From Minisyncoccia bacterium (GTDB lineage: Bacteria; Patescibacteriota; Minisyncoccia; Phycocordibacterales; DATDWN01), in contig JBAQUS010000015.1 of the NCBI GenBank assembly GCA_049297675.1, positions 1,414 to 65,413 of the forward strand: 64,000 bases of DNA. Direction: 5' to 3'. Under the pieces are notes generated by a model. The model worked only from the letters and a program-made list of their open reading frames with translations, did not search any database and had not been told where the DNA came from. A program made the position numbers and the translations under genes. Of the stretch, positions 5,665 to 62,861 are shown piece after piece; within the stretch, counting starts at the first letter, position 1, and each line of letters begins with the position of its first letter.

Positions 5665-5675
5665 TTATAATACTT

Positions 5676-5812: not shown

Positions 5813-5817
5813 AGATC

Positions 5818-7431: not shown

Positions 7432-7527
7432 TTTTGACTTTTTAATAAATTTATACTCTTATGCAGAATCTCTTTGCTTTTTTATGGTAAATTTAAGAAC
7501 GACATGATAAAATGTTCCGCATATTAG

Positions 7528-9139: not shown

Positions 9140-9168
9140 AACATTTGGCAACTTAGTTGCCAAATGTT
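9140..9168. repeat. 13-bp-stem palindrome aacatttggcaac-tta-gttgccaaatgtt
   Basis: The 19-nt core ttggcaacttagttgccaa recurs at 46429-46447. Confidence 0.6.
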
Positions 9169-22127: not shown

Positions 22128-22416
22128 ACTTTCCCGATCACAAAGTGTTGAGAACAGTCACCAAACGCAGGGTATTCAAAGGGGTAGAAAAGAATGACGT
22201 TAAAATGGAAACCATACAGTCATATCTAGGCCTTTTGAAACATGGAAATAGCAGGAAGTTAGAGAACCAATTGTTCCTACCAATTAGATAGAAATATCGC
22301 TATGTTATTGCTGGAGTGGTATTATTGAAACACAAACGGGTGGACCTCTTACATTAGTTATTGCCTAATGTAAAAAATATTGGACCGCAAGCCAAAAATC
22401 TATTAATATATATAGT

Positions 22417-23289: not shown

Positions 23290-23304
23290 TAATTATCTCA
23301 ATAT

Positions 23305-24726
23305 ATGGCTCAAATAACCAAAGATGTAGCACGTGAGATTATAGAGGATTTTGCTAGTGATATTGCTAGAGCCAAAAGTGCAGATGGTCCAAAACCTCAA
23401 AAAGAAGTAATAGATTTTAGAAATGAAAAACGGGATGGTGTTGAAAGAGTAGTGTATACCGTTCCTATTTCTCTACTTAGATTTCGTAAAGAAAATGGTA
23501 GAATCGCCTCTGACGTTTTGGCATACGAAAAAGGACACGGGGTTCTTCGTGAAGATGTGAGTGAACATCAAAAAATACTTGCAGGTTTTCTCAGAGATAA
23601 GGACCCCGATACAACGGAAATTCTTAAGAAGTCAGTTCAACAAAAAGGGCAAGAAGACCCAGCTATAATTACCGCTGATGGTTTTTTAATCAATGGTAAT
23701 CGACGTAAGCTTGTACTTGAAATGTTGTGGGAAGGATCCAGTCACGACCCTCGTTTTGAGCGTATGAAAGTAGTTATCCTGCCAGGTAAGGATGATCCTG
23801 GAGGCACTCCAACTAATAGAGAGATAGAACAAATCGAAAACCGATATCAACTCTACAAAGATGGAAAATCTGAATATTCAAATTTTGACAGAGCCCTCTC
23901 TGTTCGTAGAAAAATAGACTCTGGTATGTCTTTGGAAGAACAATTGCGGGATGATCCTGCAACTTCAGGAATAAGTGATCGTGATTTTAAAAAAGAAGTG
24001 CAACGCTATCAGGATGAGTTTCTCGGACCTCTTACTTGTGCAGATCGTTATCTGGAAGCTATAGGTCGTGAAGGAATCTACACACTCATTTCTTCTGGGA
24101 AGGGAGACAGAGAAAATAGATGGCAAGCTTTTATTGATTATTACAAGTTCTACAAACGTCTCCAAGACCCTGCGGAACGAGTAAAAGTGGGAGTTGAAGA
24201 AAAAGAGGTGGGTAAACTTGAGGCAATGGCTTTTAGCCTCATTAGATTGAGAGATTTTTCCAATCTAGGCATAAAGCTACACATGCTCATACGCAAGCTT
24301 CCCAAATATGTTGCCCATCCTTATGCCAAAAAAGAGCTTTTACAAATCAGCTCTTTAGGACACGATGTGGAAGATACTTCTAAAAAAGGTGACAGTTCTT
24401 CCCCTGAAGAACTCGATAAACGTTGGGTTAATGCAAACCAGACCGACATCAAACGCCAAGTTCATAAGGCACAAGAGATCATTGAAAGAATAGAAGTCAT
24501 GGAAACCCCTATTACACTTTTACGACAAGCTCTCGACAAGCTTACAGATGATAACATGGACCCAGCTTCGATAAAATATAATGATGTACCTGAAGCACTG
24601 AGGTTGGCTCAAGGATTAAAAGATCGAGTGGAAGAGTTGCGTAAGGAGTTCTATCAACACCAAAAAGTTGGTGAGGATTACATATCTAAGAATAATAATA
24701 AAACTCCAAAACGCAATGGAAGTTAG
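23305..24726 (+). CDS. ParB/Sulfiredoxin-fold (ParB N-terminal nuclease-like) domain protein
   Basis: 'YTVPISLLRFRKENGR' together with 'ITADGFLINGNRRKLV' matches ParB box I/II-like motifs. The C-terminal ~300 aa are unassigned. Confidence 0.55.
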   Translation: MAQITKDVAREIIEDFASDIARAKSADGPKPQKEVIDFRNEKRDGVERVVYTVPISLLRFRKENGRIASDVLAYEKGHGVLREDVSEHQKILAGFLRDKDPDTTEILKKSVQQKGQEDPAIITADGFLINGNRRKLVLEMLWEGSSHDPRFERMKVVILPGKDDPGGTPTNREIEQIENRYQLYKDGKSEYSNFDRALSVRRKIDSGMSLEEQLRDDPATSGISDRDFKKEVQRYQDEFLGPLTCADRYLEAIGREGIYTLISSGKGDRENRWQAFIDYYKFYKRLQDPAERVKVGVEEKEVGKLEAMAFSLIRLRDFSNLGIKLHMLIRKLPKYVAHPYAKKELLQISSLGHDVEDTSKKGDSSSPEELDKRWVNANQTDIKRQVHKAQEIIERIEVMETPITLLRQALDKLTDDNMDPASIKYNDVPEALRLAQGLKDRVEELRKEFYQHQKVGEDYISKNNNKTPKRNGS

Positions 24727-26593
24727 AGTAACTGATAATAGTATTTCTATTCTCTCTGCTCAAAAAACAACGACAGGGCAGATTTCTTTTTGGGGATTTA
24801 CAAAAGACAGTGAAGGAGTCTACACACTTCAGACTAACGAAGTGGCTTCAATGCTGGAAAAGGTACTTGATTTTTTTGATACAGAAAATCTAACGTATAC
24901 TCTTTCTCTTGAAGCAGAAAATATAAAAAAAGATAGAACAAAAGTCATTGTTGATTTTTCTGAAAGAAAAAAAGTACTTGAAGATTTTAAACATGGAATT
25001 TTTGATAAACAAGCGTACCAGGACTTCACTGGTTTTCTTTCCAAAAATCTAGTACGTTCACTAAAGGAACATCAAAAGAAAAGTGCTTACCATCTATATC
25101 TTGCTAGAAATGGGGCAAATTTCTCTGTTCCTGGAAGTGGAAAAACTTCTGTGGTGTTGAGTGTATTTGAAAAACTACGAGCTGAAGGAATAGTTGATAC
25201 ATTGTTTGTCATTGGACCTCCTGCTTCTTTTGGCCCATGGAGAAAGGAATTTGAAGCTACCATCGGCAGAAAACCGACCTATAGAACTCTAGCTGGAGGA
25301 GACAGACAGACTCGTTCTATCGAGTATTACCCAGATGATAAAACAAAAGCAGAACTTTATCTCACTACTTTTCAGACTGTTCTAAAAGACCAGGATGAGG
25401 TTATCCGATTCCTTTCCTCACGACACATTAATGCTTTTCTTGTAGTGGATGAGGCCCATTACATGAAGCGTTTGATTGGAAACTGGGCAAATGCTGTCAT
25501 GCGTCTTGCCTCTTCCGCATCTGTTCGTTGTGTTCTTACAGGGACACCCCTACCCAGAAGTCATACTGATATTTTTAATCTCTTTGATTTTCTGTGGCCA
25601 AATAACAAGCCTATTAGCGAGTCTCAACAACACATGATTACAGTATATGAGAAAGACCAAAAATATGACCAAATAAAACAGATACTCGACACCACAGTTG
25701 GACCACTATTCTATAGAGTCAGAAAATCAGACCTCAATTTAACCAAACCTGTTTTTCATGACCCTATTAAAATTCGCATGAATAATTATGAAAGAAAAAT
25801 ATACGATGCTATTGAAAATAAGATACGAGAAGAAAACATGCATGACGAAATACATGATTTCGAGTTGGTACTACATCTAAGGCGAGGTAGACTCATGCGT
25901 TTAAGACAAGCGTCGTCGTATATCGGATTATTAAAGAGTTCAATTGTGGGATACGAAGAAGTTTTGTATGACCCTGCTTCTGATATAGGAAAGTATATAC
26001 ATGCGTACGATGAACACGAACGTCCAGCCAAACTAGAGTATCTTCTGAATTTTTTGAAGGAATTAAAAATAAAAGGAGAAAAAATAGTCATATGGTCAAA
26101 TTTTCTTGGAACAATCGATCTCATACAAAAAACGCTCATTGCAGATGGTCTAAAAGTTAAAATAATAACTGGAGCTACTCCCGTCGAACAAATGTCTATT
26201 AGTGAGGCAGATACTAGAGAAAAGATAAGAGATGAGTTCGTTGATCCAAATAGTGGACTCGATATTTTGATAGCAAACCCTGGAGCCTGTGCGGAATCTA
26301 TTTCACTACATACCACTTGTCACCACGCACTATATTACGATTTATCTTATAACTGTGCTCAGTATCTCCAGTCGCTAGATAGAATTCATCGTGTGGGAGG
26401 GTCTGAAAAAATTCTAGCTCATTACCATTTTTTGCAGTATGATGACACAATTGACGAAGACGTTAAGTCCAGCTTGGACAGGAAAGCTAGGCAGATGTAT
26501 CAGGTCATTGATCAGGATTACGCTATTTCTTCCCTAGACATAAGTAATGAAGACGAATTAGAGGCATATGAAAGAATATTCTCTCCAAAATAG
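24713..26593 (+). CDS. SNF2-family ATPase/helicase
   Basis: Walker A 'PGSGKTS', 'LVVDEAHYMK' (DEAH box), 'VLTGTPLPRSHTDIFNLFDFL' (SNF2 motif III) and C-terminal 'QSLDRIHRVGG' (motif VI). The start overlaps the upstream stop (ATGGAAGTTAG). Confidence 0.75.
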   Translation, partial: AMEVRVTDNSISILSAQKTTTGQISFWGFTKDSEGVYTLQTNEVASMLEKVLDFFDTENLTYTLSLEAENIKKDRTKVIVDFSERKKVLEDFKHGIFDKQAYQDFTGFLSKNLVRSLKEHQKKSAYHLYLARNGANFSVPGSGKTSVVLSVFEKLRAEGIVDTLFVIGPPASFGPWRKEFEATIGRKPTYRTLAGGDRQTRSIEYYPDDKTKAELYLTTFQTVLKDQDEVIRFLSSRHINAFLVVDEAHYMKRLIGNWANAVMRLASSASVRCVLTGTPLPRSHTDIFNLFDFLWPNNKPISESQQHMITVYEKDQKYDQIKQILDTTVGPLFYRVRKSDLNLTKPVFHDPIKIRMNNYERKIYDAIENKIREENMHDEIHDFELVLHLRRGRLMRLRQASSYIGLLKSSIVGYEEVLYDPASDIGKYIHAYDEHERPAKLEYLLNFLKELKIKGEKIVIWSNFLGTIDLIQKTLIADGLKVKIITGATPVEQMSISEADTREKIRDEFVDPNSGLDILIANPGACAESISLHTTCHHALYYDLSYNCAQYLQSLDRIHRVGGSEKILAHYHFLQYDDTIDEDVKSSLDRKARQMYQVIDQDYAISSLDISNEDELEAYERIFSPK

Positions 26594-27491
26594 TGATTTT
26601 AAAAAAATATCTCTAGCCCAAATAAAAGTCTTATTTGAGGTACTAATGAACAGTCATGGTCATGATATTTCTTATGTAAAGGAGAAATACCTGAGAGGAA
26701 GTGCTTTTTTTGATGAGACTTTTCGGTTTTTGTCTGTTTTAGGCATAGTAGAAAATATAGATAAACAACTCCAACTTTCTATTCCAGCAAATATGGAAGT
26801 AGAATCAATTCTTCTAAATTCTCTTTTTAGGAAAGCTAGTAAAATATCCGCTATTGTCGATTACTTCCATAACTTTTTATTAGTGGAGGATGTGTATACT
26901 TTTAAACCACCAGTACAGAAAAATTTACAGACCAGCGGAGTTCGCAATCTCCTATTGGAATTGGATATTATTGAACACGATATAAGTACTGGAAATTATA
27001 TTGTAAGTAAAAAGGGAACACCATATTTGAAATCTTTTTTATACCGCACTTCCGTTTTGGAGTTTGAAGAAATCCTTAGAAAACGAGATAAACTAGGACT
27101 TAAGGCAGAATTAGCTGTTCTTGCATATGAGCACAAGAAACTAAGTAAATATCCTGGATTGGCAAAACAAATTGTTCATGTTTCTCGCTCTGATGTCGGA
27201 GCCGGGTATGATATTCAGAGTTTTACTTATGCCGATGGAGCGCCAACACTAAAATATATTGAAGTTAAGGCTGTTTCAGCAAATGATTTTAGTTTCTTTT
27301 GGTCAATTAACGAGATCGAGGTTGCAAAATGGTATAGGCAACAATACTACTTATATTTGGTACCAATATCAAAGGGTGGAAAAATTAACATGCAGAAGTT
27401 GAAGATAATTTCAGACCCATATGATTATATTTATAAGGATGAAAAAAATAGAGATCTTGAGTCCGTACTTTTTCATGTTTCACCAAAATAG
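26568..27491 (+). CDS. hypothetical protein with a C-terminal PD-(D/E)xK nuclease-like (DUF3883-like) domain
   Basis: 'ELAVLAYEHKK...GAGYDIQSF...YIEVKAV...FWSINEIEVA' carries D...ExK catalytic-type motifs. The start is uncertain (an alternative Met lies at 26646). Confidence 0.5.
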   Translation: MKEYSLQNSDFKKISLAQIKVLFEVLMNSHGHDISYVKEKYLRGSAFFDETFRFLSVLGIVENIDKQLQLSIPANMEVESILLNSLFRKASKISAIVDYFHNFLLVEDVYTFKPPVQKNLQTSGVRNLLLELDIIEHDISTGNYIVSKKGTPYLKSFLYRTSVLEFEEILRKRDKLGLKAELAVLAYEHKKLSKYPGLAKQIVHVSRSDVGAGYDIQSFTYADGAPTLKYIEVKAVSANDFSFFWSINEIEVAKWYRQQYYLYLVPISKGGKINMQKLKIISDPYDYIYKDEKNRDLESVLFHVSPK

Positions 27492-27494
27492 TTT

Positions 27495-28247
27495 ATGTCC
27501 GAATATCACAACGCACAAAGAACACGAGGAATGTACGACTCAAAGTCGGAGGAGCCATTCAAACTATCTCGGTCCAAAATAGATCTCTTTTTGCAGTGTC
27601 CTCGTTGTTTCTACTACGACAGAAAGTTAGGTGTAGGTCGCCCTCCAGGATTCCCATTTGCTATCAACTCAGCAGTGGACCACTTACTAAAGCAGGAATT
27701 CGATATCCACCGTGCAAATGGAACTAAACATCCACTGATTGAAAAATACAATGTTGACGCTAAACCAATCGCACACGAGGATTTGGATAAGTGGCGTCAC
27801 AACTTCACAGGTATTCAGTACCTGCACGAATTAACCAACCTACTCATAACAGGAGCAATAGACGATCTTTGGCAGAATTCAAAAGGAGAATACATAATTG
27901 TTGATTATAAAGCCACGTCAAAAGACGAAGAAATAACGGAACTAAACAAAGACTGGCAGAAGGGCTACAAGCGACAGATGGAAATTTACCAATGGCTACT
28001 ACGTCAGAACGGCTACAAAGTATCTAACACTGGCTACTTCGTATATTGCAATGGCAAAACAGATAGAGAAGTCTTTGATGCAAAAATAGAATTCGACATT
28101 ACACTTATCCCATACGAAGGAGATGATTCATGGGTAGAGAAAACTATCATCCAAGCTCATAAGTGTCTCTGTGGTGACAAGATACCTGATGCTGACTCAG
28201 AATGTGATTATTGTAGCTATGTGACAGCTCTCTCAAAATATAAATAA
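27495..28247 (+). CDS. Cas4-like / RecB-family PD-(D/E)xK nuclease with Fe-S cluster cysteines
   Basis: N-terminal 'CPRCFYY'. 'D...IIVDYKATS'. C-terminal 'CLCGD...CDYCSY' gives a Cas4-type 4-Cys arrangement. Confidence 0.6.
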   Translation: MSEYHNAQRTRGMYDSKSEEPFKLSRSKIDLFLQCPRCFYYDRKLGVGRPPGFPFAINSAVDHLLKQEFDIHRANGTKHPLIEKYNVDAKPIAHEDLDKWRHNFTGIQYLHELTNLLITGAIDDLWQNSKGEYIIVDYKATSKDEEITELNKDWQKGYKRQMEIYQWLLRQNGYKVSNTGYFVYCNGKTDREVFDAKIEFDITLIPYEGDDSWVEKTIIQAHKCLCGDKIPDADSECDYCSYVTALSKYK

Positions 28248-28351
28248 CTGGAAGAAAATTCACAAGCACAACTTGATTCTTTTCCCGAGATCTCCGAAGA
28301 GCCATTTTTGTAACTAGAAAAATCTACTGAATTCGTATAAAACTACTGCTT

Positions 28352-28903
28352 TCAGCTATTCATGGCCTTCTTGAGCTTCTCTGCTTCCTCTAGTTCCTGG
28401 ATCAGCCCTAACTGAGCATATTGTCCCAGCCAGTGCATAAATCGCTTACTGTACTGGCCTTTATAGAAGATACGATTCATGCTTTCCCGAATGGCCATAA
28501 GCTTTATAATTCGACTTTGTTTATAGAGAAATTGCCCGTGCTTGCTATGACGGTTTATCCTAGTTGAAGCATATTGAAGTCTGTGACACTTACGACAGGC
28601 AAATACTCCGTTACTGAGATATAGAGCGTTCGTCCTACTCCCACAACCACAAGTTAGGTATGAACGGGTCCCAAAAGTCAGTTCTTGCTCCGATAATTCA
28701 AAACGTTGTGATTCTAGGGCAAAAGTAACAACAAGATACGCTTTTTCGTCTTCATGTTCTATGTAGTAGTCAGCAACGGACGGTTTGTTGTTATGTACTA
28801 TATTCAAATATCCTTCCACAGATTCCTTCTTGCGGGTTTTACGGAGATCTTTTTTGAGTAAATGTGTAGTCAGTGCAAACGAATTTTCTATCAATGCTCC
28901 CAT
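28352..28903 (-). CDS. hypothetical protein with a CxC...CxxC zinc ribbon
   Basis: 183 aa. 'TCGCGS...CRKCH'. Confidence 0.45.
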   Translation of the reverse strand: MGALIENSFALTTHLLKKDLRKTRKKESVEGYLNIVHNNKPSVADYYIEHEDEKAYLVVTFALESQRFELSEQELTFGTRSYLTCGCGSRTNALYLSNGVFACRKCHRLQYASTRINRHSKHGQFLYKQSRIIKLMAIRESMNRIFYKGQYSKRFMHWLGQYAQLGLIQELEEAEKLKKAMNS

Positions 28904-28929
28904 TACTACATTTTACTATAGTACTACAA

Positions 28930-29088
28930 TTACCCTTCCGTATTTATTGTGAGAGCTTTGTACCAACAATAAAGGAAAGCTATATAAAAAATCCATTCAA
29001 TTCCATCTCCACCGCCAACTCGATCTCTAACTGCAATTCCGCCTAGAACCAATATTATACCGAGAATAAATAAGACTGTTGATGACAT
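28930..29088 (-). CDS. possible small hydrophobic membrane protein (52 aa), not in the ORF track
   Basis: Manual translation of the minus strand: MSSTVLFILGIILVLGGIAVRDRVGGGDGIEWIFYIAFLYCWYKALTINTEG. It starts 12 nt after the stop of the upstream gene. Confidence 0.3.
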   Translation of the reverse strand: MSSTVLFILGIILVLGGIAVRDRVGGGDGIEWIFYIAFLYCWYKALTINTEG

Positions 29089-29099
29089 ATTTTTTTATA

Positions 29100-29939
29100 T
29101 TAAAACCAAAACCACGATTTAATTTTTGACCATAGGCTTTTAGGTTGAACTTGGGTTATAGGAACAGAGGAGGTAGCTGCTAGATTGTCTTCTGGAGGAA
29201 CTACATTTGATATTTCAGGATCATTTTTAACAGAAAGATTTTCTTTTACCTCTACTTCTTTCTTGATTACAGGAGCCACTACTTTCACCTGCTCTTTCTG
29301 TCTTGCTTCAACCGCATTTTGCCAAGTGGTGTAACACTCCTCCTCTGACATGACTCCAAAATATGTCATTTTCGAGAACACAGGTTTATTACACGCCACG
29401 TTTCCAGACTTATTACCGTTCGGAATTTCCTGTGTTTGTACTTTCGGTACAATTGCTGGGGGAGACACACCAACTTTTTGCGGCTTCCCAATACAACTGG
29501 TCCTATCGCTATTCCATTGATAGTTGGACGGACAATCACAAGTCAAACCGCCGTTAGAGTTATTCTGCCCCGCATATTTACTGTTAGGAAAAGAAAGATT
29601 ACATGACTGATCGTAGGTGTAACAATTATCTCCCTTTTGAACATAACCACTCTGACAAGTAACTGGATGGTTAGTACGAACGTTACTAGGATAACGAGCT
29701 TCTAGTTGTTGTTGTAATAGTTGTTGTTGAAGTTTTTGCTGTTGAAGAAATATTGCTTGCAGTTGAGTTTGTCTCTGTAACTCATCAATTCTGGCACCAG
29801 GTTCTGGGACAATTTCTATCTGTAATGGATTAAGTACGGAACCTGGATAAATGGTTCCATAGGCATGAACGAAAGCAATAGGAACAAACACTATCAAAAG
29901 AAATAACACAAAGAAACTCTTTGGAGTTTTATATTTCAT
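29100..29939 (-). CDS. secreted Cys-rich, Gln-rich hypothetical protein
   Basis: Signal peptide from the internal Met (MKYKTPKSFFVLFLLIVFVPIAFVHA). A QQQKLQQQLLQQQ tract. 12+ Cys residues. Confidence 0.5.
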   Translation of the reverse strand: MKYKTPKSFFVLFLLIVFVPIAFVHAYGTIYPGSVLNPLQIEIVPEPGARIDELQRQTQLQAIFLQQQKLQQQLLQQQLEARYPSNVRTNHPVTCQSGYVQKGDNCYTYDQSCNLSFPNSKYAGQNNSNGGLTCDCPSNYQWNSDRTSCIGKPQKVGVSPPAIVPKVQTQEIPNGNKSGNVACNKPVFSKMTYFGVMSEEECYTTWQNAVEARQKEQVKVVAPVIKKEVEVKENLSVKNDPEISNVVPPEDNLAATSSVPITQVQPKSLWSKIKSWFWF

Positions 29940-30452
29940 GTTTCGCGTGGGTTTTAACCTGATAATAAGTCTCGTGTACCAAAAATGGCCACACAAGACC
30001 AGCGATAACTTCTTTCGAAATTACCCCATATCCTTTCGGATATGGACCCACGCGAGTAAGTGCGGCTTATGTGGCCGTTTTTAATCGCGTGGGATTTCTT
30101 ATGATCCATGCTAGAAACTGCTTATCAGCTTCTAGTTTAGGTATGTACAGATATAATACACCTTGAAACAGATATCGTAAATCACCGAAAAAGCCTTAGA
30201 ATTTTTAGAAATTTTTTAATCATTTCATTTTTCAAATCCAAAACTTTTCCAATACAACCCTCCAGATCTAGGAGGTTACGTTTCCTCCACAAGCCACATA
30301 TTCTGGGTCCTGTGATCCCGACCACTGCCCGGGTACTCATCCAGATACATCCAGTAACAAACATTAGCACTATATAGGTAGCAGAATAATTTAATAACTT
30401 CTGCCAAGCACGAGCTAGTCTCTCGTGTTTTTATTTTATTCACAAACTAAAC

Positions 30453-30764
30453 ATGAAACATATCAAGGAGATCGTAACTAACCCAGTCATATCGCCCTAT
30501 CGTGGCTCTGAAGCTACATATGAGATGGTACGTGAGCAACTGCGTGAGAAATATGGTGATGAGTGTGCAGATGAGTTTAACCCGCATACTGACGCAATGC
30601 CCTTCGTATCATGGGCTTCTTTCGGTTATCGAATTAAACCCCAAGAACGTGCATTCAAATCGGTAACATACGTGGAAGTCAAAAATGACAAAGGTGAGGT
30701 TGAGAGAAAAATCCGTCGTGTCGTCAATCTCTTCCACAAAAACCAAGTAACGAAAGTCAGGTGA
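30453..30764 (+). CDS. hypothetical protein (element-associated)
   Basis: 103-aa ORF. Confidence 0.4.
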   Translation: MKHIKEIVTNPVISPYRGSEATYEMVREQLREKYGDECADEFNPHTDAMPFVSWASFGYRIKPQERAFKSVTYVEVKNDKGEVERKIRRVVNLFHKNQVTKVR

Positions 30765-30789
30765 TTTATTCAACTAAATAACTAACATT

Positions 30790-31359
30790 ATGAACACAAC
30801 ATATAAACAACACATAGTCTCACCATTCCAAGTGAAGAAAAAAACTTACGATATAAGTGGCAAGGATCACCCAGTCCAAGAGGAAATCAGAAAGAACCTT
30901 GGCGAACTTCACTTAACAGCTGTGTTTGAAGAAGACACACAGACATTACAGGCATTCAGACATGTGAGTGGTGTCATAGCTTTTCTTTGTACACTGAAGA
31001 AGGATGATCAGATTATAGGATTTGGCAGAGGTGTGTCTGTCGTTACCAAGCTCAATCGGTATGTAGAGAGAACTGTTAGCTTTGCTCAAAACTCAGCTTT
31101 GATTGATTCTGTGGTAAGAGCAACCAAGATGCTTGATGCCTTGCATTTGAGCTCAAGTGGGCAACAAAACACTGTCATAACCAAAGACAATGAAGACTTC
31201 TCTCCCATAACAACTAAGCAGAAGAACTATTTGCTGAAATTACTTCAAACGACAAACATTATTAACCAGAACAGCCGTGATCAAATGGAAGACGAGATTG
31301 ACGGAATGAGCAAGGAGGAAGCGGCAGAGAAAATCAGTTTTCTCATAGAGTCGAGATAG
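30790..31359 (+). CDS. hypothetical protein (element-associated)
   Basis: 189-aa ORF. Confidence 0.4.
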   Translation: MNTTYKQHIVSPFQVKKKTYDISGKDHPVQEEIRKNLGELHLTAVFEEDTQTLQAFRHVSGVIAFLCTLKKDDQIIGFGRGVSVVTKLNRYVERTVSFAQNSALIDSVVRATKMLDALHLSSSGQQNTVITKDNEDFSPITTKQKNYLLKLLQTTNIINQNSRDQMEDEIDGMSKEEAAEKISFLIESR

Positions 31360-31382
31360 ATTACTAAAAATAATACAAAAAC

Positions 31383-31625
31383 ATGATTAACACAGTAGCA
31401 ATCGGTGAGTACGAAAGCCCAAAAGGAAACTATGGCTATCCTTTAGACTATGTGGGAGAGGAGAAAATGATAGACGAACGTCAGAGACTTATCCTAACAA
31501 ATCTCATATTTGAAAAGATACATGACGAGGGCGAGAGAGAATCTTGGCTATCTCAAGTGAGTTGTATGACGTCTGATGATGCAGAGAGTGCAATCTTTTC
31601 ATTCCTGACTTCACAGTGGCAGTAA
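31383..31625 (+). CDS. hypothetical small protein
   Basis: 80-aa ORF with a terminator downstream. Confidence 0.4.
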   Translation: MINTVAIGEYESPKGNYGYPLDYVGEEKMIDERQRLILTNLIFEKIHDEGERESWLSQVSCMTSDDAESAIFSFLTSQWQ

Positions 31626-31636
31626 TAGATACACAA

Positions 31637-31667
31637 GAAGCGTATTCCTCGGAGTACGCTTTTTTTG
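31637..31667 (+). terminator. rho-independent terminator (aagcgtattcctcggagtacgct + T7)
   Basis: Long stem followed by 7 T. Confidence 0.65.
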
Positions 31668-32113
31668 TGATATTTCTTTTCTATCCCGTAATTCAACATA
31701 ATTATCAAGAGAACTCCATTTACAATTTATATTTTTTGTTATCTGGTGGTGTAATTATCCCCAAACCACTTGTTTTAAAACTTTTTCCATGCCTATTGTA
31801 AGCTCTTTTTTACATTCTACGTTCAAGAATAAGGATTTTTTATAAATACAAATCTATGGAACTAATCAGATAGTGCTAAAAATAGGCCTAAGAATATGAG
31901 AATCAAATAATTGGTACTGGAATAAGCTAAGTACTAGGTTAGCTGATAGGTCTTTTTGATCAGATAACAAAATATGAAATAGAAAAAACAAAATTATAAG
32001 GGGGAATCTACTAGAAAAAGTCCGTTTATAGCTGTGCAAGGTCCCTATTCTAGTAGAACCTTCATAGCTCTAAGTGGATTTTTTATTTATCAAAATTAAA
32101 CACGAACACTATT

Positions 32114-34363
32114 ATGGAAAACATAAAAACGAATTTGGAATGGGCACTGTACTACCGAAGTATAGGATGGAGTCCATTTCCTGTAGTAAAAGGCGGAAAG
32201 GTACCGTCGATCGAATGGAAAAAATATCAAAATGAAATTGCGTCTGAGGAAGAAATTAACAACTGGTGGAAACAAAATCCTGAAGCAAACATAGGCATAG
32301 CAACAGGGCTGGTATCGGGTGTAATTGTTCTTGATATAGATTCAAAGCACAATAGAACGTCAAAGGAATTTCAAATTCCTCCTACCATTTGTGCTAAAAC
32401 GGGAGGACTTGGCGAACACATCCTATTTAAACACCCAGGCGGACATGTAAAAAGCACAAACGGTCAACTTTTCGGTTCCGGAGTTGATTTAAAGGCAGAC
32501 GGTGGGTATGTCGTACTCACTCCCTCATTGCACGAAAGTGGTAATCGATATGAGTGGATTATTGGACCTGATGAGACAGAACTAGCAGAGGTTCCTATAT
32601 GGCTACGCGCCGCTTTAGAGGGGCAGGATAAAAATGCAGATGCAAAACTCTGGCAAAAAGGAGCAAGCGGAGTCTCAGAAGGTAATAGGAATGAAACTGC
32701 TGCATCAGTCGCTGGTAAACTCCGCAGCTCTCTTCCTAAGGAATTAGTAGAAGACGGATGGGAAAATCTGATTGCGTGGAATAAAAAGAATCCCGAGCCA
32801 TTACCCGAAGAAGAACTTAAAAGAGTTTGGGATAGTGTCAAAAAATATGATTCAGAGGAAGAGGCACCAGCAAAAGAGTCACCCGCAACCAAATTGTTGA
32901 AACTTATTCGGGAAAGGAAGGATGTAACAATTTTTCGTGACTTTCACGGTGATGCTTTTATTGCACTTGAAATAGAAGGAGTACGTCAAGTATGGTCCTG
33001 TAAAAGTGATCAGTTCCAACATTGGCTTTCACTCTTATACTTTCATACTTACAAGACTGTCCTACCGTCAGATGCGAAAACGGGTGTAGTAGGTACTATC
33101 AAGGGTTTCGCGACGTTTGAAAAGGAGGTCATACATCTCCAGTCTAGAAACGCTTACTTTGGCGATGAGCTTTGGTACGACATGACAAATGATAAGTGGC
33201 AGGCAATCAAAGTGACTCAAGCAGGATGGGAGTTAGTGGATAAGCCACCTATACTATTTCGTCGTTATTCTCACAACAAAGCGCAAGTAATGCCTCTCGC
33301 GGGAGGTGATGCGAGGTTACTTCTAAAATACTTCAACATTTCTGACCCACAGCAACAACTTCTTATACTCATTCACATCATCTCTGCCTTTATTCCGGGG
33401 TTCGCACATCCAATATTAGTAATAAACGGTCCTCAAGGATCAGCAAAATCAACTTTTTCTCGTATTTTACGTCTCATAATTGATCCATCCATTATGGAAG
33501 TTGCTTCCATGCCAGATACTCATAGGGAGCTGGTCCAGACACTAGCGCACAACTCATTTATCTTTTTTGATAATGTTTCGTGGATTTCAGAGACCGTCTC
33601 AGATATTTTATGTAAAGCTGTAACCGGAAGTAGTTTTCCAAAAAGAGAACTCTACAGCGATGATGACGATGTTATCTACACTTTTATGAGAACTATCGGC
33701 ATTAACGGTATCAGTATGTTCCTGGCTAGACCTGATCTTTTGGAACGAAGTATTATCCTAAAACTCGATAGGATTGATTCTAAAAATAGAAAACTAGAAA
33801 AAAGTCTTATGACAGAATTTGAACATGATTTACCAAGTATACTCGGAGGCATTTTCGATGTATTGGTAAAAACACTCGCACTTAAACCTACTATAGAGCA
33901 GGAAAATCTCCCCCGCATGGCAGATTTTGCTTTGTGGGGATGTGCAGTAGCAGAAGCTTTAGGTGTAACACAGAAAGAGTTTATGGATTCGTACAATACA
34001 AATATTGCTCTCCAGACCGACATCGTAATTAACGAAAATCTTATTGCTTCTACTATCATTTCGTTCATGCAAGACCAAGAAAGGGATGAATGGGTTGGAA
34101 CTGCTACTGGTCTACTTCACAGCTTAGGAGAATTCGCGAAGAGTCATTCTGTTGATGTTCACGATAAGCAGTGGCCAAAAGCACACAATGTATTATCCCG
34201 TAGGTTAAATGAACTCAAAATCAACTTTTTGGAAGCTGGATGGGACATCTCGATTGACGGAGGTCAAGTGCGAAAAATCACTATTCGCTGGATTGGAAAG
34301 AAGCCGAATGTTCCAATTCCAAACACTTTAACAAGGTCAGAAGAAGATTTTAAAAATTTCTAA
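32114..34363 (+). CDS. bifunctional primase-polymerase (Prim-Pol N-domain) with a C-terminal P4-type primase/helicase-like P-loop domain
   Basis: 'GWSPFPVVKGGKVPSIEWKKYQ...ANIGIATGLVSGVIVLDIDS' is the Prim-Pol motif. 'VINGPQGSAKSTFSRIL' is the Walker A. Confidence 0.7.
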   Translation: MENIKTNLEWALYYRSIGWSPFPVVKGGKVPSIEWKKYQNEIASEEEINNWWKQNPEANIGIATGLVSGVIVLDIDSKHNRTSKEFQIPPTICAKTGGLGEHILFKHPGGHVKSTNGQLFGSGVDLKADGGYVVLTPSLHESGNRYEWIIGPDETELAEVPIWLRAALEGQDKNADAKLWQKGASGVSEGNRNETAASVAGKLRSSLPKELVEDGWENLIAWNKKNPEPLPEEELKRVWDSVKKYDSEEEAPAKESPATKLLKLIRERKDVTIFRDFHGDAFIALEIEGVRQVWSCKSDQFQHWLSLLYFHTYKTVLPSDAKTGVVGTIKGFATFEKEVIHLQSRNAYFGDELWYDMTNDKWQAIKVTQAGWELVDKPPILFRRYSHNKAQVMPLAGGDARLLLKYFNISDPQQQLLILIHIISAFIPGFAHPILVINGPQGSAKSTFSRILRLIIDPSIMEVASMPDTHRELVQTLAHNSFIFFDNVSWISETVSDILCKAVTGSSFPKRELYSDDDDVIYTFMRTIGINGISMFLARPDLLERSIILKLDRIDSKNRKLEKSLMTEFEHDLPSILGGIFDVLVKTLALKPTIEQENLPRMADFALWGCAVAEALGVTQKEFMDSYNTNIALQTDIVINENLIASTIISFMQDQERDEWVGTATGLLHSLGEFAKSHSVDVHDKQWPKAHNVLSRRLNELKINFLEAGWDISIDGGQVRKITIRWIGKKPNVPIPNTLTRSEEDFKNF

Positions 34364-34369
34364 AACAAT

Positions 34370-34639
34370 ATGAAAGAAGAAAATAAAAACTATATGGACG
34401 GTTCGGATAGAGGAGTGTTGCACGTCCTTTGTGTTGACACAATGGATATCAAAGCAAGGGTGACTTTTAACTCAGAGGTGGTCCAAGGAGTTTATGTGAC
34501 CTACTGGGCAGAAGATACTGAAGTTGCCGAAAAACAATTAGATAAAATCTTTAGCATTTTTTTTGAAGAAGTACTTAAAACTAGAGGTATGAATGAGAAC
34601 AGCAGGGAAAAAAGCCAAATTATTATCAATAATATATAA
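34370..34639 (+). CDS. hypothetical small protein
   Basis: 89-aa ORF tightly packed between the primase and the recombinase. Confidence 0.4.
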   Translation: MKEENKNYMDGSDRGVLHVLCVDTMDIKARVTFNSEVVQGVYVTYWAEDTEVAEKQLDKIFSIFFEEVLKTRGMNENSREKSQIIINNI

Positions 34640-34647
34640 TTAAAAAC

Positions 34648-36312
34648 ATGGAAGACAAACCACAAAAAGAAATCAAATTCATAGCGGTATACGCTCGAGT
34701 TTCAACTTCAAATCAGGAGGATCAAAAAACGATTGATGCCCAACTTTCAGAGGTAAGGGAATTTGCTGAAAAAAATAAATACATTATTGTCAAAACTTAC
34801 AAGGATGAGGGCTGGAGTGGGGATATTTTAGCTCGACCTGAGCTTGATCAGTTACGTCATGATGCACGAAGTAAAATGTGGGACGCTGTGCTTGTATATG
34901 ACCCCGATAGACTTGGTCGTCAGCTTCTTTTCCAACAAATAGTCATTGATGAATTAAAGAAACTAGAAATTGAAATTCTATTTGTAACTATGCCTCCAGT
35001 AAAAAATGCGAGTGACAAACTCTTGTTTGGTGTTCGTGGGTTATTTGCTGAATATGAAAAAGCAAAGATAACTGAACGTTTTAGAATTGGAAAAGTAAAT
35101 CGTGTGAAGAATGGTTACGTTTTAACCTCAGAAGCACCATATGGCTATACCTATGTTCTCAACAAAGGAAAACGTGGTAGTGCAGACTACATCGTTGGAC
35201 ATTACGAAATAAATGAACGTGAAGCTAAAATTATAAAACAAATATTTTCTTGGGTTGGCGATGAAGGGATGACACTCCGTGGTGTTGTCAGGAGATTACA
35301 AGGACTTGGTATTCAACCACGAAAAAGCAAAAGGGGTGTTTGGAATACAAGTACACTCAGCACACTTCTAAAACACGAGGTGTTTATCGGTACTGCATAT
35401 TGGGGAGTATCATACGCAGTCATTCCTGACAGACAATCTACTACAACTCGATATAAAAATACAGAAAAGACAAGTAGAAGGATAAGGCCAAAAAAAGAAT
35501 GGTATCCAATATCAGTTTCCGCTATTATAGAAAAAGATCTATTTGAACGTACTACACTTCGGCTACAGAAGAACTTTCAGACACTAGGCAGAAACACGGT
35601 AAATGAATATCTTTTGGCAGGTAGAATTTGGTGTGTTTGTGGTGGAAGAAGGGCTGGTGAAGGCGTACAGAAAGGTAAACATCTATATTATCGTTGTACT
35701 AATCGGGTTCACACATTTCCATTACCTCCTACATGTGCAGAAGGTAGTATTAACGCAAGGATTGCAGATGATATCGTATGGCAAAGGGTCAAGGAAACCC
35801 TGAGTTCACCAAAATTACTACGAGAACAAATTGAACGATGGCGCAAGGATGAAAATAGAAGCATCAAACAAGGAGTAACGATTGAGATCAATAGTACCAA
35901 GAGAGAAATTGCTAAATTACAAACTCAAGAAGATCGTTTCGCCAGCGCCTATTCAAAAGAGATTATTACTCTTGAAAAATTTGAAGAGTACGCAACTCCT
36001 ATTCGAACAAAAATCCGTGAACTTGAAAATCAGATATACCTAGCTGGTCTAGAAGAGACACCGAAAAATGATGTACCATTACCAAATGAAGATGAGGTTG
36101 AAGCTTTTGCTGAAGAATCCTTAAAAAAGCTCCAAAACTTGAATTTTCCGACAAAACAAGCCATTATTAGGCAGTCAATCGATAAAGTACTCGTTACTAC
36201 GAATGAATTACAAGTCTACGGTCTCATTAATCTAAATATAATCCATGTCGTCTTCCGCTCTGAGCATAGGTATTGTCGGTCTGCCGAACGTCGGGAAGTC
36301 GACGCTTTTTAA
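34648..36312 (+). CDS. large serine recombinase (integrase)
   Basis: Resolvase N-domain 'IAVYARVSTSNQ...DEGWSG...VLVYDPDRLGR', followed by the recombinase domain, a Cys-rich zinc ribbon (CVCGGRR...CTNRVH...C) and a coiled coil. The 3' end overlaps ychF by 68 nt. Confidence 0.8.
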   Translation: MEDKPQKEIKFIAVYARVSTSNQEDQKTIDAQLSEVREFAEKNKYIIVKTYKDEGWSGDILARPELDQLRHDARSKMWDAVLVYDPDRLGRQLLFQQIVIDELKKLEIEILFVTMPPVKNASDKLLFGVRGLFAEYEKAKITERFRIGKVNRVKNGYVLTSEAPYGYTYVLNKGKRGSADYIVGHYEINEREAKIIKQIFSWVGDEGMTLRGVVRRLQGLGIQPRKSKRGVWNTSTLSTLLKHEVFIGTAYWGVSYAVIPDRQSTTTRYKNTEKTSRRIRPKKEWYPISVSAIIEKDLFERTTLRLQKNFQTLGRNTVNEYLLAGRIWCVCGGRRAGEGVQKGKHLYYRCTNRVHTFPLPPTCAEGSINARIADDIVWQRVKETLSSPKLLREQIERWRKDENRSIKQGVTIEINSTKREIAKLQTQEDRFASAYSKEIITLEKFEEYATPIRTKIRELENQIYLAGLEETPKNDVPLPNEDEVEAFAEESLKKLQNLNFPTKQAIIRQSIDKVLVTTNELQVYGLINLNIIHVVFRSEHRYCRSAERREVDAF

Positions 36313-46394: not shown

Positions 46395-46447
46395 TCGACT
46401 AGCAAGGACCGTCCTTGCTAGTCGAACTTGGCAACTTAGTTGCCAAG
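46395..46447. repeat. two adjacent palindromes: tcgactagcaaggac-c-gtccttgctagtcga and cttggcaac-tta-gttgccaag
   Basis: The second shares a 19-nt core with 9140-9168. Confidence 0.6.
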
Positions 46448-47247: not shown

Positions 47248-48345
47248 ATGAGTGATACTAAAAAAGTTTTTGTGGGGGTTTCGGGGGGAGTGGATAGCTC
47301 TGTGGCTTTGGCACTTCTTAAAAAACAAAATTATGATGTTACAGGAGTATTTCTGAAAGTCTGGTCGCCGGATTTTTTAGAGTGTGATTGGAGAGAGGAG
47401 AGGAGAAGTGCTATGCGGGTGTGCGCTACTTTGGGTGTGCCTTTCCTAACACTTGACTGTGAAGCGGAGTATAAAAAGGAAGTTGTGGACTATATGATAA
47501 GAGGGTACAGCGAGGGAAGAGTTCCTAATCCAGATGTTTTTTGTAACAAGTATGTGAAGTTCGGAGTGTTTTTGAAGAAGGCACTTGAGATGGGAGCAGA
47601 CTTCGTGGCCACAGGACACTATGCTACGCGATACGAATATACGAATCATGCGAATAATACGAATGGATTCGAATTGAGAGAATCCAAAGACAAGGAAAAG
47701 GATCAGAGTTATTTTTTACACACATTAAATCAGGAACAATTAAGCAGATCACTTTTTCCGATTGGAGGATATACAAAGCCAGAAGTCAGAGAAATGGCTA
47801 GAAAATTTGGACTTCCAACTGCTGAGAAAAAAGACAGCCAGGGTCTATGTTTCATAGGTAAAATCGACATAAAGGATTTTCTCTCGCACTACATAAAAAC
47901 AGAGAAGGGAAATGTTTTAAATGTTCAAAGCGAGATTATTGGCGAGCATCCTGGGGCACTATTCTTTGCTATCGGGCAAAGGCACGGTTTTACAATTACG
48001 AAAAAGAATTCAGATGACTCTAGATATTTTGTAATTAGTAAAAGTATGAAAGAAAATACTATTACAGTGGCAAATAAAGAAAAAGAAAACGTTGAGGTTT
48101 ATACTACAAAGGAAATTTTTCTGAGGAGTATTCATTTTATTAGTAGTAAAGTGACAGAATTCCCATTGAAGACTGAAGTCAGAATACGTTACAGACAAAA
48201 TAAGCAAGACTGTATGATACAAGAAGAAAGTGGAGGATACAGAATTTATTTCAAAAATCCACAAGAAGGAGTCTCGATCGGGCAATCAGCCGTTTTTTAC
48301 GATGGGGAAGTATGTCTGGGAGGTGGAATAATTGAGAATTATTGA
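47248..48345 (+). CDS. mnmA: tRNA-specific 2-thiouridylase MnmA
   Basis: PP-loop 'VGVSGGVDSSV', 'CNKYVKFG', and C-terminal domains. Confidence 0.85.
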   Translation: MSDTKKVFVGVSGGVDSSVALALLKKQNYDVTGVFLKVWSPDFLECDWREERRSAMRVCATLGVPFLTLDCEAEYKKEVVDYMIRGYSEGRVPNPDVFCNKYVKFGVFLKKALEMGADFVATGHYATRYEYTNHANNTNGFELRESKDKEKDQSYFLHTLNQEQLSRSLFPIGGYTKPEVREMARKFGLPTAEKKDSQGLCFIGKIDIKDFLSHYIKTEKGNVLNVQSEIIGEHPGALFFAIGQRHGFTITKKNSDDSRYFVISKSMKENTITVANKEKENVEVYTTKEIFLRSIHFISSKVTEFPLKTEVRIRYRQNKQDCMIQEESGGYRIYFKNPQEGVSIGQSAVFYDGEVCLGGGIIENY

Positions 48346-48416: not shown

Positions 48417-48464
48417 AAGAAGTATACCATATCTTTGCGATCGCAAAGATATGGTATACTTCTT
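48417..48464. repeat. 48-bp perfect palindrome aagaagtataccatatctttgcga|tcgcaaagatatggtatacttctt
   Basis: Its central 20 bp are identical to those of the 61816-61863 palindrome. Confidence 0.8.
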
Positions 48465-48700
48465 ATTGACACAATAACTAGCATTGTTTTATCATCGTTT
48501 AGTTAAACAACTAAGATAAGTATTATTATCAATACGCGATCAATATGGGTCAGTTAGACTTTTGCGGTTTAATTTTTTTATGCAATAATGACGGGATGAA
48601 TCCCGTTAGAGGTCTAATGTAATTTGCCTCTGGGAGACAGAAATGGTTATTAATTAATTTTTTTAACATTGACTATGGAGTTACTGTTACCTCTAAAGGG

Positions 48701-49534
48701 ATGAATCCAGAAGGAATATATGTTGTAAAAGCAGACGGAACACGCCAGCTGTTTGACCAGTCAAAACTAGAGCACTCGCTAAAAAAAGCCGGGGCAGGAA
48801 GCAAAGCTGTTACTGAAATAATAAATCATGTAGCGTCTCATCTTTCTCAAGATATTACTACTCACGAAATTTATAAGCATGCTTTTGAGCTACTCCAAAA
48901 AGAAGATCAACCTATTGCAATAAAGTATTCTCTAAGACGAGCTATTATGGAGCTTGGTCCTACAGGTTTTGCCTTTGAGGATTTTATTGCAGAAATTTTT
49001 AAGCAAGATGGATATCAGGCTGAAACCGGGAAAATTGTTAAAGGATTTTGTGTTGAGCATGAAATAGATGTGGTGGCTTGGAACAAAGAAAAGCTCATCA
49101 TGGTTGAGGCTAAGTTTCATAACGAACTTGGAACCAAGTCCGATCTTAAAGTGGCACTATATGTCAAAGCCAGATTTGAAGATTTGATGAAGATGAAATT
49201 TGATTATGGGGGTGAAAGGAATCTTGACGAAGGATGGTTGGTAACGAACACAAAATTTACATCAACGGCAATAGAGTATGGATCGTGTCAGGGCGGAATA
49301 AGAATGGTTGGTTGGAACTATCCTCCGGTTGGTAACCTGCATGACATGATACTCGAAGCCAAACTTCACCCTCTGACATGTTTGGTAAGTCTAAATGGTC
49401 GTGAGAAGAGAGAACTGCTTTCTCAAGGTTTTGTTTTGTGCAAAACGCTTTTTGAAAAGCCAGAATTACTCCAATCGGTAGGTATCACAGGAGACAGGAA
49501 GAAGGAAGTCCTGGATGAAATTGATTCGCTATAA
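48701..49534 (+). CDS. ATP-cone domain + Mrr-like restriction endonuclease domain protein
   Basis: 'VVKADGTRQLFDQSKLEHSLKKAG' is the ATP-cone. 'FEDFIAEIF...VEHEIDVVAW...MVEAKF' is Mrr_cat-like. Confidence 0.55.
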   Translation: MNPEGIYVVKADGTRQLFDQSKLEHSLKKAGAGSKAVTEIINHVASHLSQDITTHEIYKHAFELLQKEDQPIAIKYSLRRAIMELGPTGFAFEDFIAEIFKQDGYQAETGKIVKGFCVEHEIDVVAWNKEKLIMVEAKFHNELGTKSDLKVALYVKARFEDLMKMKFDYGGERNLDEGWLVTNTKFTSTAIEYGSCQGGIRMVGWNYPPVGNLHDMILEAKLHPLTCLVSLNGREKRELLSQGFVLCKTLFEKPELLQSVGITGDRKKEVLDEIDSL

Positions 49535-61271: not shown

Positions 61272-61709
61272 ATGGAAAAAACAACTACGAAAAAAGATGT
61301 TGGAGTAAAAAACAAAGTCATGACTGATAGATATACTGAGGCTGTTGGTAGGAGAAAGACTGCAATTGCCAGGGTTAGAATTACTCCGGCCAGCAAAGTT
61401 TCTGTTTTAATTAACGAAAAAGAACTCGAAAAGTATTTTCCAGTAATGGAAATGCAAGACACAGTACTCGAACCCTTCTCTGAGTCCCCAGAGAAGTTTA
61501 GTGTTACTGTAAAAGTATCTGGTGGTGGAGCTCATTCACAATCTGAGGCTATTAGACACGGTATTGCTAGAGCTATAGTAGAGAAAGACTCAAATCTAAG
61601 GCGTGCTATAAAAAAAGCTGGTTATCTCAAACGAGATCCTCGTGCAAAAGAGAGAAGAAAGTTCGGTCTAAAGAAAGCAAGGAAGGCTCCAAAATGGAGC
61701 AAGAGGTAA
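61272..61709 (+). CDS. rpsI: 30S ribosomal protein S9
   Basis: 'GRRKTAIARVRI...GGGAHSQSEAIRHGIARA...KRDPRAKERRKFGLKKARKAPKWSKR'. The start may instead be the Met at 61320. Confidence 0.85.
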   Translation: MEKTTTKKDVGVKNKVMTDRYTEAVGRRKTAIARVRITPASKVSVLINEKELEKYFPVMEMQDTVLEPFSESPEKFSVTVKVSGGGAHSQSEAIRHGIARAIVEKDSNLRRAIKKAGYLKRDPRAKERRKFGLKKARKAPKWSKR

Positions 61710-61815
61710 AACACTTTTTTCGGTTTTATTACTCAATGTAGTTAACTCACTGTAAATTACAAAACTCTTATTCAACACATATTTTCTGTCACCAGAATAA
61801 TTTTCTGAGCCCATT

Positions 61816-61863
61816 TAAAACTACACACGATCTTTGCGATCGCAAAGATCGTGTGTAGTTTTA
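61816..61863. repeat. 48-bp perfect palindrome aaaactacacacgatctttgcga|tcgcaaagatcgtgtgtagtttt
   Basis: Same 20-bp core (atctttgcgatcgcaaagat) as 48417-48464, with different arms. Confidence 0.8.
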
Positions 61864-61966: not shown

Positions 61967-62149
61967 TTATCTCTCAGGATGGATCAGTTTTCTTGTACGG
62001 ACATATACCTCAAGAAGCCGTCCATTACTAACTGACTGTACCAATCCACGAATTATTGAGAGTGCGGTATCATCAGATGAGTTAATGATAATACCCACTT
62101 CCACATTCCTGTCTCCAGGATGGTCCCAGACGTAAATGTATGTGTTCAC
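61967..62149 (-). CDS. hypothetical small protein
   Basis: GTG start with GGAGGT 5 nt upstream. 60 aa. Locally GC-rich. Confidence 0.4.
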   Translation of the reverse strand: MNTYIYVWDHPGDRNVEVGIIINSSDDTALSIIRGLVQSVSNGRLLEVYVRTRKLIHPER

Positions 62150-62836: not shown

Positions 62837-62861
62837 CTTGTGGAAGACCGTCTTCCACAAG
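62837..62861 (+). other. perfect 11-bp hairpin cttgtggaaga-ccg-tcttccacaag after grpE (no T-run)
   Basis: Seen in the sequence. Confidence 0.4.

Follow-up and report, generated by a model that had tools for sequence, protein, structure and literature searches.

Two perfect palindromes of 48 bp, W1 and W2, are found in a 64-kb stretch of a Minisyncoccia metagenome-assembled genome (MAG), from a groundwater-type bacterium with a tiny genome and a G+C content of 37.5%; the stretch is referred to here as the window (coordinates in Table 1). They are members of a small dispersed family of extragenic palindromes of Zambryskibacteria/Minisyncoccia-type Parcubacteria. Based on position and structure, this family may consist of dispersed hairpins, similar to repetitive extragenic palindromic (REP) sequences, that act as bidirectional intrinsic terminators or 3'-end elements, a reading to which a probability of about one half is assigned. 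On present evidence the family is not a categorically new system, and joins the REP-like repeats and the bidirectional terminators. Next to nothing has been described of dispersed palindromic repeats or of terminator architecture in the Candidate Phyla Radiation (CPR)/Patescibacteria, whose members are uncultured and have minimal genomes, and a literature search found no paper on such palindromes in this group.

The palindromes and their family

W1 (AAGAAGTATACCATATCTTTGCGATCGCAAAGATATGGTATACTTCTT) and W2 (TAAAACTACACACGATCTTTGCGATCGCAAAGATCGTGTGTAGTTTTA) are each identical to their own reverse complement over 48 bp (24+24), and share the central 20-mer ATCTTTGCGATCGCAAAGAT. Direct reading thus confirms what an earlier reading of the sequence alone (the sequence-only reading) had described as two perfect 24+24 palindromes with a common 20-bp centre. 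In neither can the palindromy be extended, even by one base. After these two, the longest perfect palindrome of the window has 16 bp, and the octamer GCGATCGC has two occurrences in the 64 kb, one in W1 and one in W2. For a perfect palindrome of 24 pairs, base composition gives a chance expectation of ~1e-9 per window (0.266^24 x 64000), and the 20-mer with up to three mismatches was observed twice, against none in 100 shuffles. Outside the core no larger shared element was found around W1 and W2, and an Rfam search gave no matching family at either. The arms had been said to differ completely, which is overstated: 7 of 14 arm positions agree between W1 and W2 in the alignment, and the arms are homologous to those of the copies in other genomes.

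The core was searched as the exact 20-mer against GTDB species genomes and JGI metagenomes, and 31 loci were returned. The Parcubacteria matches collapse to six further distinct loci (A, B, B2, C, D and E), with A-D belonging to Parcubacteria GW2011_GWA2_40_14, B2 to a Zambryskibacteria MAG and E to a Yanofskybacteria MAG. All family copies are perfect palindromes of 42-62 bp (half-lengths 21-31 bp) with sharp ends, and the weight that the sequence-only reading had placed on the identical length of W1 and W2 was too great. Its suggestion of a maintained hairpin family rather than chance is supported: the six further loci, in three other lineages, carry the same core with different, perfectly self-complementary arms. 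The core matches in proteobacterial, cyanobacterial and low-GC contigs have arms of only 10-13 bp and are taken as chance; those in GC-rich proteobacterial contigs sit among overlapping open reading frames (ORFs), which makes chance likely.

Local gene order is common to the window organism and GW2011_GWA2_40_14, but their YchF proteins are only ~61-75% identical over two aligned segments and their LeuRS proteins ~46-54% identical. Given these low identities, the shared core does not come simply from one vertically inherited site. The same 44-bp unit (AAATCATACCAG-core-CTGGTATGATTT) is found in B and B2, whose loci are unrelated: B follows mraY in GW2011_GWA2_40_14, and B2 follows a malic-enzyme gene in the Zambryskibacteria MAG. 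The outer arm AAAATTAGAC is common to C and D. There are two copies in the 64 kb of the window, four in the GW2011_GWA2_40_14 assembly and one in 22 kb of the Zambryskibacteria MAG, numbers to be read with the knowledge that assemblies break at such sites. Degenerate or half copies were sought in the window and in ~0.5 Mb of collected loci, and none was found. A phage origin was rejected, with the 20-mer absent from IMG/VR and the 16-mer matches there being unrelated short hairpins. Among these, the viral contig IMGVR_UViG_3300005861_000020 (L041) has four ~45-nt repeats (ATCTCTCCGTTATAGCTTTGCGATCGCAAAGACTTTTTCGAGTT) within 3.3 kb (4545-7883), whose likeness to the family is limited to the inner 16 bp; they have 8-bp arms and are unrelated to it.

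W1 and W2 are real, non-random, and part of a lineage-restricted family. An assembly or library artefact (chimeric inverted reads, adapter), against which the sequence-only reading had itself cautioned, or chance is an extremely improbable explanation. Fold-back chimeras are known to yield perfect palindromes, and contigs do end at W1. Contigs with an identical MnmA were recovered from four Logan sequencing runs and from MAG GCA_049296155.1 (five short-read contigs, L009-L013), and every recovered short-read contig of this mnmA allele ends inside W1, 101-117 nt past the mnmA stop. These ends are explained by the behavior of de Bruijn assemblers, which stop at true perfect palindromes; one contig end is at the exact position expected of a k=31 graph at a perfect palindrome, and two contigs of MAG GCA_049296155.1 abut at W1 by coordinate arithmetic. 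W2 is identical in this second assembly of the same organism (L039), W1 is present in four separate runs, and the family recurs in data sets of different projects and years. The palindromy also stops at 24 bp, with ordinary unique sequence in conserved gene order on both sides. The order mnmA > ATP-cone/Mrr_cat > HD > uracil-DNA glycosylase (UDG) across W1, and ...rplQ-rplM-rpsI > grpE across W2, is kept in a relative. The ~1e-9 expectation and the lack of any hit in the shuffles argue against chance. Perfect palindromes of this kind add to the fragmentation of CPR MAGs, and are hence under-counted there.

Arm symmetry and probable template switching

In an alignment of the eight loci on their centres (W1, W2, A, B, B2, C, D and E), the 10 core pairs are invariant and 11 of the 12 variable arm pairs are altered on both sides, with 25 double-change cells. 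Inside the arms no pair is in a one-sided (G-U) state, all differences being Watson-Crick compensated, and unpaired cells are confined to the three outermost columns, where the shorter members stop. The observed values were reached in none of 500 shuffles, and no slid register approaches them. No residual complementarity was found beyond the perfect arms, which excludes a larger imperfect palindrome. The arm consensus is TAAAATTATACCAG, with E as the outlier, and the conserved positions indicate that the arms are homologous. In seven of the eight copies, A predominates in the left outer arm and T in the right one (for example TAAAAC/GTTTTA and AAAATT/AATTTT); the T's of the right arm lie inside the stem, and W1 has only CTTCTT.

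Selection on RNA alone appears insufficient to account for this symmetry, since it would let G-U pairs and the odd mismatch pass, neither of which is seen. Two non-exclusive causes fit the perfect pairing: use of both strands, which forbids G-U because it turns into an A-C mismatch on the other strand, and template switching at the DNA level. It is most likely that the perfection is upheld by template switching. During replication, the nascent strand would switch template between the two arms, copying a new mutation to the opposite arm or erasing it, and such a switch could also lengthen the palindrome at the expense of the flank. The outcome would be perfect pairing with sharp ends, a length that varies and arms that are specific to each copy, and arm homogenisation of this type may be operating at W1, W2 and the related loci. 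Template switching homogenises and expands inverted repeats (PMC8794818, PMC13100816). The family resembles template-switch quasipalindromes in its perfect arms, sharp ends, compensated multi-base differences and variable arm length (PMC8794818, PMC10710096, PMC13100816). Template switching accounts for the perfection and growth of the palindromes, but not for one 20-bp centre at unrelated loci.

The recG gene of the Zambryskibacteria host of B2 has an in-frame insertion of 18 nt, which together with the native GCC codon that follows is an inverted copy of the native GGCAACTTGCAAACTT. The encoded RecG reads GNLQT/FGSLQV/AYM, compared with GNLQTAYM in six close homologues, and the insertion gives a perfect 16-bp hairpin (L016 4255-4290 = L044 11003-11038). 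This is a textbook template-switch mutation, and direct evidence of such events in these genomes. The same recG has a second perfect palindrome of 25 bp (L044 10558-10582). In the secF coding region (L008 4354-4394, about L024 6957-6997) there is a perfect 19-bp stem with a 3-nt loop (AAAACCTCCACTTGGAGGCaagGCCTCCAAGTGGAGGTTTT) in a variable linker. It was considered as a second template-switch case, but solved SecDF structures, when aligned, did not reveal if this hairpin is an insertion. A comparison of contigs L021 and L007 shows palindrome C with ~220 bp of 97-100% identity on the side of the PAP2 gene, ~65-70% identity in L021 beyond that tract, and no homology on the other side. L021, a metagenome contig and the one diverged copy, is thus mosaic; either recombination produced a tract that ends at the palindrome, or the contig is chimeric.

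In model bacteria, SbcCD normally destroys long perfect palindromes; that those described here persist may be a sign that these lineages process hairpins differently. In this family, nature offers a clean case of hairpins staying absolutely perfect while the arms diverge, and arm-to-arm template switching is directly testable here by population metagenomics.

Position, fold and proposed transcription termination

Each of the eight loci is in an intergenic spacer, starting 0-107 nt past a stop codon. Three of them (W2, A and C) are placed between genes that converge, the partner of W2 being the candidate 60-aa ORF of Table 1, and each of the five co-directional loci is nearer to the upstream stop than to the downstream start. 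A bidirectional terminator class, one of the candidates put forward in the sequence-only reading, is the best fit to this position. The location it gave for both copies, 3' of + strand operons, also holds, at 72 nt past the mnmA stop for W1 and 107 nt past the rpsI stop for W2.

As RNA or single-stranded DNA, W1 and W2 fold on either strand into a 22-bp stem with a GAUC loop. The folding free energy of W1 RNA is -33.6 kcal/mol for the + strand and -34.7 kcal/mol for the - strand (z about -10 to -11), and that of W2 RNA is -34.3 and -36.4 kcal/mol; across the W1 and W2 folds on both strands, z ranges from -8 to -11. Perfect hairpins with stems of at least 9 bp are concentrated between genes, with 12 of 18 in the intergenic 14% of the window (p = 5e-7). 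An otherwise ordinary terminator-like site after recG in one host genome is itself a perfect A6-stem-T6 palindrome (AAAAAATCTCCAgcagTGGAGATTTTTT).

These features suggest that a transcript from either strand would form a hairpin of 20-30 bp with a GAUC loop and a U-rich 3' side, and that the palindrome may terminate transcription in both directions without a factor while also serving as a 3'-end hairpin. The gene or operon before it (mnmA; the rpsM...rpsI cluster) would then be kept apart from the next or converging transcription unit. A bidirectional intrinsic terminator is a symmetric arrangement of A-tract, hairpin and U-tract serving convergent genes. Such terminators (PMC5381666, PMC1852404) are similar to the family in their place after stops and between convergent genes, and in a strong hairpin formed from both strands. 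The pairing of an A-rich 5' side with a T-rich 3' side may be a further likeness, and the pure Watson-Crick pairing of the family is expected if both strands must fold. Unlike usual terminators, the family has a stem 2-4 times longer without an unpaired loop at the DNA level, a 20-bp apex identical at unrelated loci and lineages, no flaw in any copy, and, in W1, a weak U-tract (CUUCUU).

Several points weigh against the bidirectional terminator reading. A terminator scan listed W1 on the minus strand only and W2 as a sub-hairpin only, and terminator-like sites in that region are not significantly enriched (17 vs 11 +/- 3.5). The small ORF on the minus strand next to W2 has its own hairpin and T-run before W2. 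The metagenomic copies of any locus all come from near-identical strains, and are uninformative on arm conversion. A plain terminator also needs no 20-bp centre that is identical across lineages with ~50-70% identical housekeeping proteins, and this identity of the core suggests that it is mobile or that a further factor recognises its sequence. Part of the invariance comes from ascertainment, as all searches used the exact core.

A fixed sequence common to many different stems is also seen where inverted pairs of DNA uptake sequences (DUS) or uptake signal sequences (USS) form terminators, and is explained there by a second, sequence-specific function (PMC1852404). The Neisseria DUS and Haemophilus USS occur about once per kb, mostly as single copies (PMC1852404). 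The half-site of the palindromes (TCGCAAAGAT, a 10-mer) is found just once outside them in the 64 kb (position 2913) and is not over-represented, and a DNA uptake signal was rejected.

Table 1. Palindromes, neighbouring genes and left arms of the family loci; positions without a contig label are those of the window.
Feature	Position or sequence	Strand	Remarks
W1	48417..48464	.	perfect 24+24 palindrome, 72 nt past mnmA stop
W1 invariant 20-bp core	48431..48450	.	ATCTTTGCGATCGCAAAGAT; 20-mer found in every family member
W2	61816..61863	.	perfect 24+24 palindrome, core of W1 with other arms, 107 nt past rpsI stop
W2 invariant 20-bp core	61830..61849	.	same 20-mer as W1
mnmA	47248..48345	+	Pfam families; upstream gene whose transcript W1 would end
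Sigma-70-like promoter TTGACA-18-TATCAT	48466..48495	+	starts 2 bp after W1; 11/12 consensus matches
rpsI	61272..61709	+	last of rpsM-rpsK-rpsD-rpoA-rplQ-rplM-rpsI cluster, upstream of W2
Candidate 60-aa ORF	61967..62149	-	GGAGGTG ribosome-binding site; TTGACA-17-TATCCT promoter (62195-62167)
Locus A, left arm	AAATGTTACCAG
Locus B, left arm	AAATCATACCAG
Locus B2, left arm	TTAAAATCATACCAG
Locus C, left arm	AAAATTAGACATG
Locus D, left arm	TGAATAATAAAATTAGACCAC
Locus E, left arm	ATACAAAGGGC
CTATAG-centred palindromes	L007 2940-2987 and 4924-4966; L034 1763-1815

The sigma-70-like promoter next to W1 would, from its sequence, drive the ATP-cone/Mrr_cat, HD and UDG genes. The first of these (48701-49534, + strand) encodes an ATP-cone domain fused to a Mrr_cat restriction-endonuclease-like domain. 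It is followed by the HD-phosphohydrolase and uracil-DNA-glycosylase genes, and the same operon is present in the relative without the palindrome. The 60-aa minus-strand ORF near W2 has no Pfam match; with its ribosome-binding site and promoter-like element it is a putative gene, which would converge on W2.

Possible mobility or protein binding, and other palindromes

The family could be a selfish miniature mobile element, similar to REPs, REP doublets forming hairpins (REPINs) or miniature inverted-repeat transposable elements (MITEs), with a core hairpin recognised by a trans-acting enzyme. The candidate enzyme would be a single-strand transposase of the HUH/RAYT (REP-associated tyrosine transposase) type, and terminator activity would be a by-product. 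This reading overlaps with the bidirectional terminator rather than excluding it, and is possible but doubtful. It is consistent with the sharp ends, with the same 44-bp unit at the two unrelated loci B and B2, with the outer arm AAAATTAGAC shared by C and D, with the presence of the core at non-orthologous sites in four lineages, and with the absence of W1 and W2 from close relatives. The relatives compared were GCA_021733565.1 and a Logan contig, whose MnmA and RpsI are 78-79% identical. The mnmA-ATP-cone spacer is 68 and 36 bp in the relatives vs 355 bp in the window, and the rpsI-grpE spacer is 207 bp in the relative vs 521 bp in the window. No palindrome was found in these two spacers of the relatives despite the kept gene order, indicating that both copies arose or were acquired after that split. 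The W1 and W2 spacers also hold other duplicated material, and in the empty-site comparison the relatives' spacers are too diverged and short to align for a native-flank arm.

A RAYT-like Y1 HUH protein is encoded in the window (295-969, + strand), which further fits a mobile element. It matches the full NF047646 model, 'REP-associated tyrosine transposase', with 73 bits vs a cut-off of 80, also matches PF01797, and has the HFH (HUH) and RYVERN (Tyr) motifs. The gene is flanked by a 26-nt inverted repeat (GGTAAAGAGGGTCAGGTACCCTTTCT, at 245-270 and 955-980, 96% complementary), each arm of which looks by eye capable of a small imperfect hairpin, and tRNA-Ala (129-202) adjoins it. However, the 26-nt repeat is unlike W1 and W2 and has no other copy in the window, and the RAYT-like gene is near no family member in the collected loci. 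Copy number appears very low, no gene recurs consistently beside the copies, no target-site duplications were seen at any copy, and no decayed copies were found in the window or the ~0.5 Mb of collected loci. The palindrome halves are not hairpins themselves, unlike those of REPINs. The hairpin-generating transposition footprint suggested in the sequence-only reading fits poorly as well, since the arms are homologous between loci instead of being copied from local flanks, and there are no target duplications and no linked transposase.

REPs are imperfect palindromes of 20-40 nt with a conserved 5' GTAG (GT(A/G)G), present in tens to hundreds of copies, and the same REP flanks its RAYT gene (PMC3116915, PMC3337134). 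The family is like REPs, bacterial interspersed mosaic elements (BIMEs) and REPINs in being composed of short extragenic palindromic repeats at gene 3' ends that form dispersed hairpins, with possible roles in 3'-end stability and termination, and a RAYT-like gene is present in the window. Unlike REPs, its members are perfect, 42-62 bp long and apparently few, and lack the conserved GTAG: over the family, GTAG was found only in W2 and GTGG only in D. Membership in a REP/REPIN-RAYT system was rejected because W1 and W2 bear no relation to the GGTAAAGAGGGTCAGGTACCCTTTCT repeats on either side of the RAYT-like gene. A MITE was likewise rejected, as no direct repeats flank any copy, no flank motif is shared, and no related insertion sequence (IS) element is present in the collected sequence. 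W1 and W2 are also not the ends of a mobile 13-kb segment, the genes between them being housekeeping genes in the same order in relatives.

A recognition site for a dimeric protein was among the candidates of the sequence-only reading. Such a protein, conserved in this clade, may bind the 20-bp core, with the arms secondary; it could be a regulator, a recombinase or an organiser of the chromosome similar to ParB/Noc. A 20-bp perfect dyad identical in lineages with 50-70% identical housekeeping proteins would suit such a protein, as would the apparently low copy number per genome and the position of W1 abutting the -35 element of a promoter. A second pair of palindromes in the window shares the core TTGGCAACTTAGTTGCCAA, and at least one of the two is near the start of a gene. 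Binding to the core leaves unaccounted for the perfect symmetry of 11-21 further bp per side, which vary between loci, and the neighbouring genes have no common function. The copies are placed after stops and between convergent genes, not at promoters, and the invariance of the core is inflated by the way copies were found. This explanation is considered rather unlikely.

A bidirectional promoter module is very unlikely. The right arm looks like an extended -10 element (consensus TGGTATAAT), as does the left through symmetry: C-TGGTATAAT-TTTA is the consensus of the eight arms, with TGGTATACT in W1 and TGGTATGAT in B and B2. Four of the eight copies lack the critical -11 A, having C (loci C and D), G (W2) or T (E) instead. 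Three copies lie between convergent genes, where the product would only be antisense RNA, all copies are close to the upstream stop codon, and W1 is trailed by a much better separate promoter.

It is conceivable, though improbable, that the family is a self-symmetrising, horizontally spreading CPR hairpin element. Its invariant 20-bp apex, centred on GCGATCGC, would be recognised by a dedicated trans-acting protein (for example an HUH/RAYT-like or another hairpin-specific enzyme) and be copied to new sites in 3' untranslated regions; fold-back or template-switch synthesis would then regrow the arms from local sequence or homogenise them with it. If so, the same process would seed the CTATAG-centred, TTGGCAAC... 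and GACCGTC families and the in-frame hairpin insertions.

The PstI palindromes of Neurospora mitochondrial DNA have a constant GC-rich double PstI core with variable palindromic extensions. They resemble the family in their constant core, variable arms and intergenic position, but belong to another kingdom and have another sequence, and nothing indicates that the two are related. Throughout their genomes, cyanobacteria carry HIP1 (GCGATCGC), identical to the central octamer of the family, at about one site per kb. Cyanobacterial HIP1 was rejected, as the 64 kb contains only two GCGATCGC sites, GATC and CGATCG frequencies are unskewed, and the gene content is that of Parcubacteria. Integron attC sites follow mobile gene cassettes and have conserved R/L boxes on the outside, a variable centre and extrahelical bases. 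An attC site was rejected because the architecture here is the opposite, with a conserved centre and variable ends, no unpaired bases and housekeeping neighbours.

Other palindromes were noted in the window and in related contigs. The odd-length perfect palindromes at 9140-9168 and 46427-46447 share the centre TTGGCAACTTAGTTGCCAA with different arms, and those at 46395-46425 and 62837-62861 share GACCGTC, also with different arms; the palindrome at 62837 starts 19 nt past the grpE stop. Both pairs have the same pattern of constant apex and variable base as W1 and W2. Contigs of the GW2011_GWA2_40_14 type contain a second family of perfect palindromes of 42-52 bp, centred on CTATAG and with an outer ACATAC motif, one of which is 38 bp from family member C. 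A DnaA-box-like sequence, TATCCATT, is present just outside the left end of two CTATAG-centred palindromes and of B2.

A 53-bp repeat is present at 61755-61807 and 5758-5810, with 90.6% identity and in inverted orientation. The first copy is just upstream of W2 with no gene after it, and the second is directly upstream of a Pol IV (dinB-like) gene at 5818. This repeat may be a duplicated promoter or operator.

The region ~22400-36300, adjoining ychF, is probably an integrated mobile element. Its genes encode an N6/N4 DNA methylase, a SNF2-family helicase, a NOV_C protein, a PD-(D/E)XK nuclease, a Prim-Pol/PriCT primase and a large serine recombinase (34648-36312). A match to LOOT RNA (RF03000) is found at 30004-30143 on the minus strand, with a score of 59.8 bits, above the gathering score.

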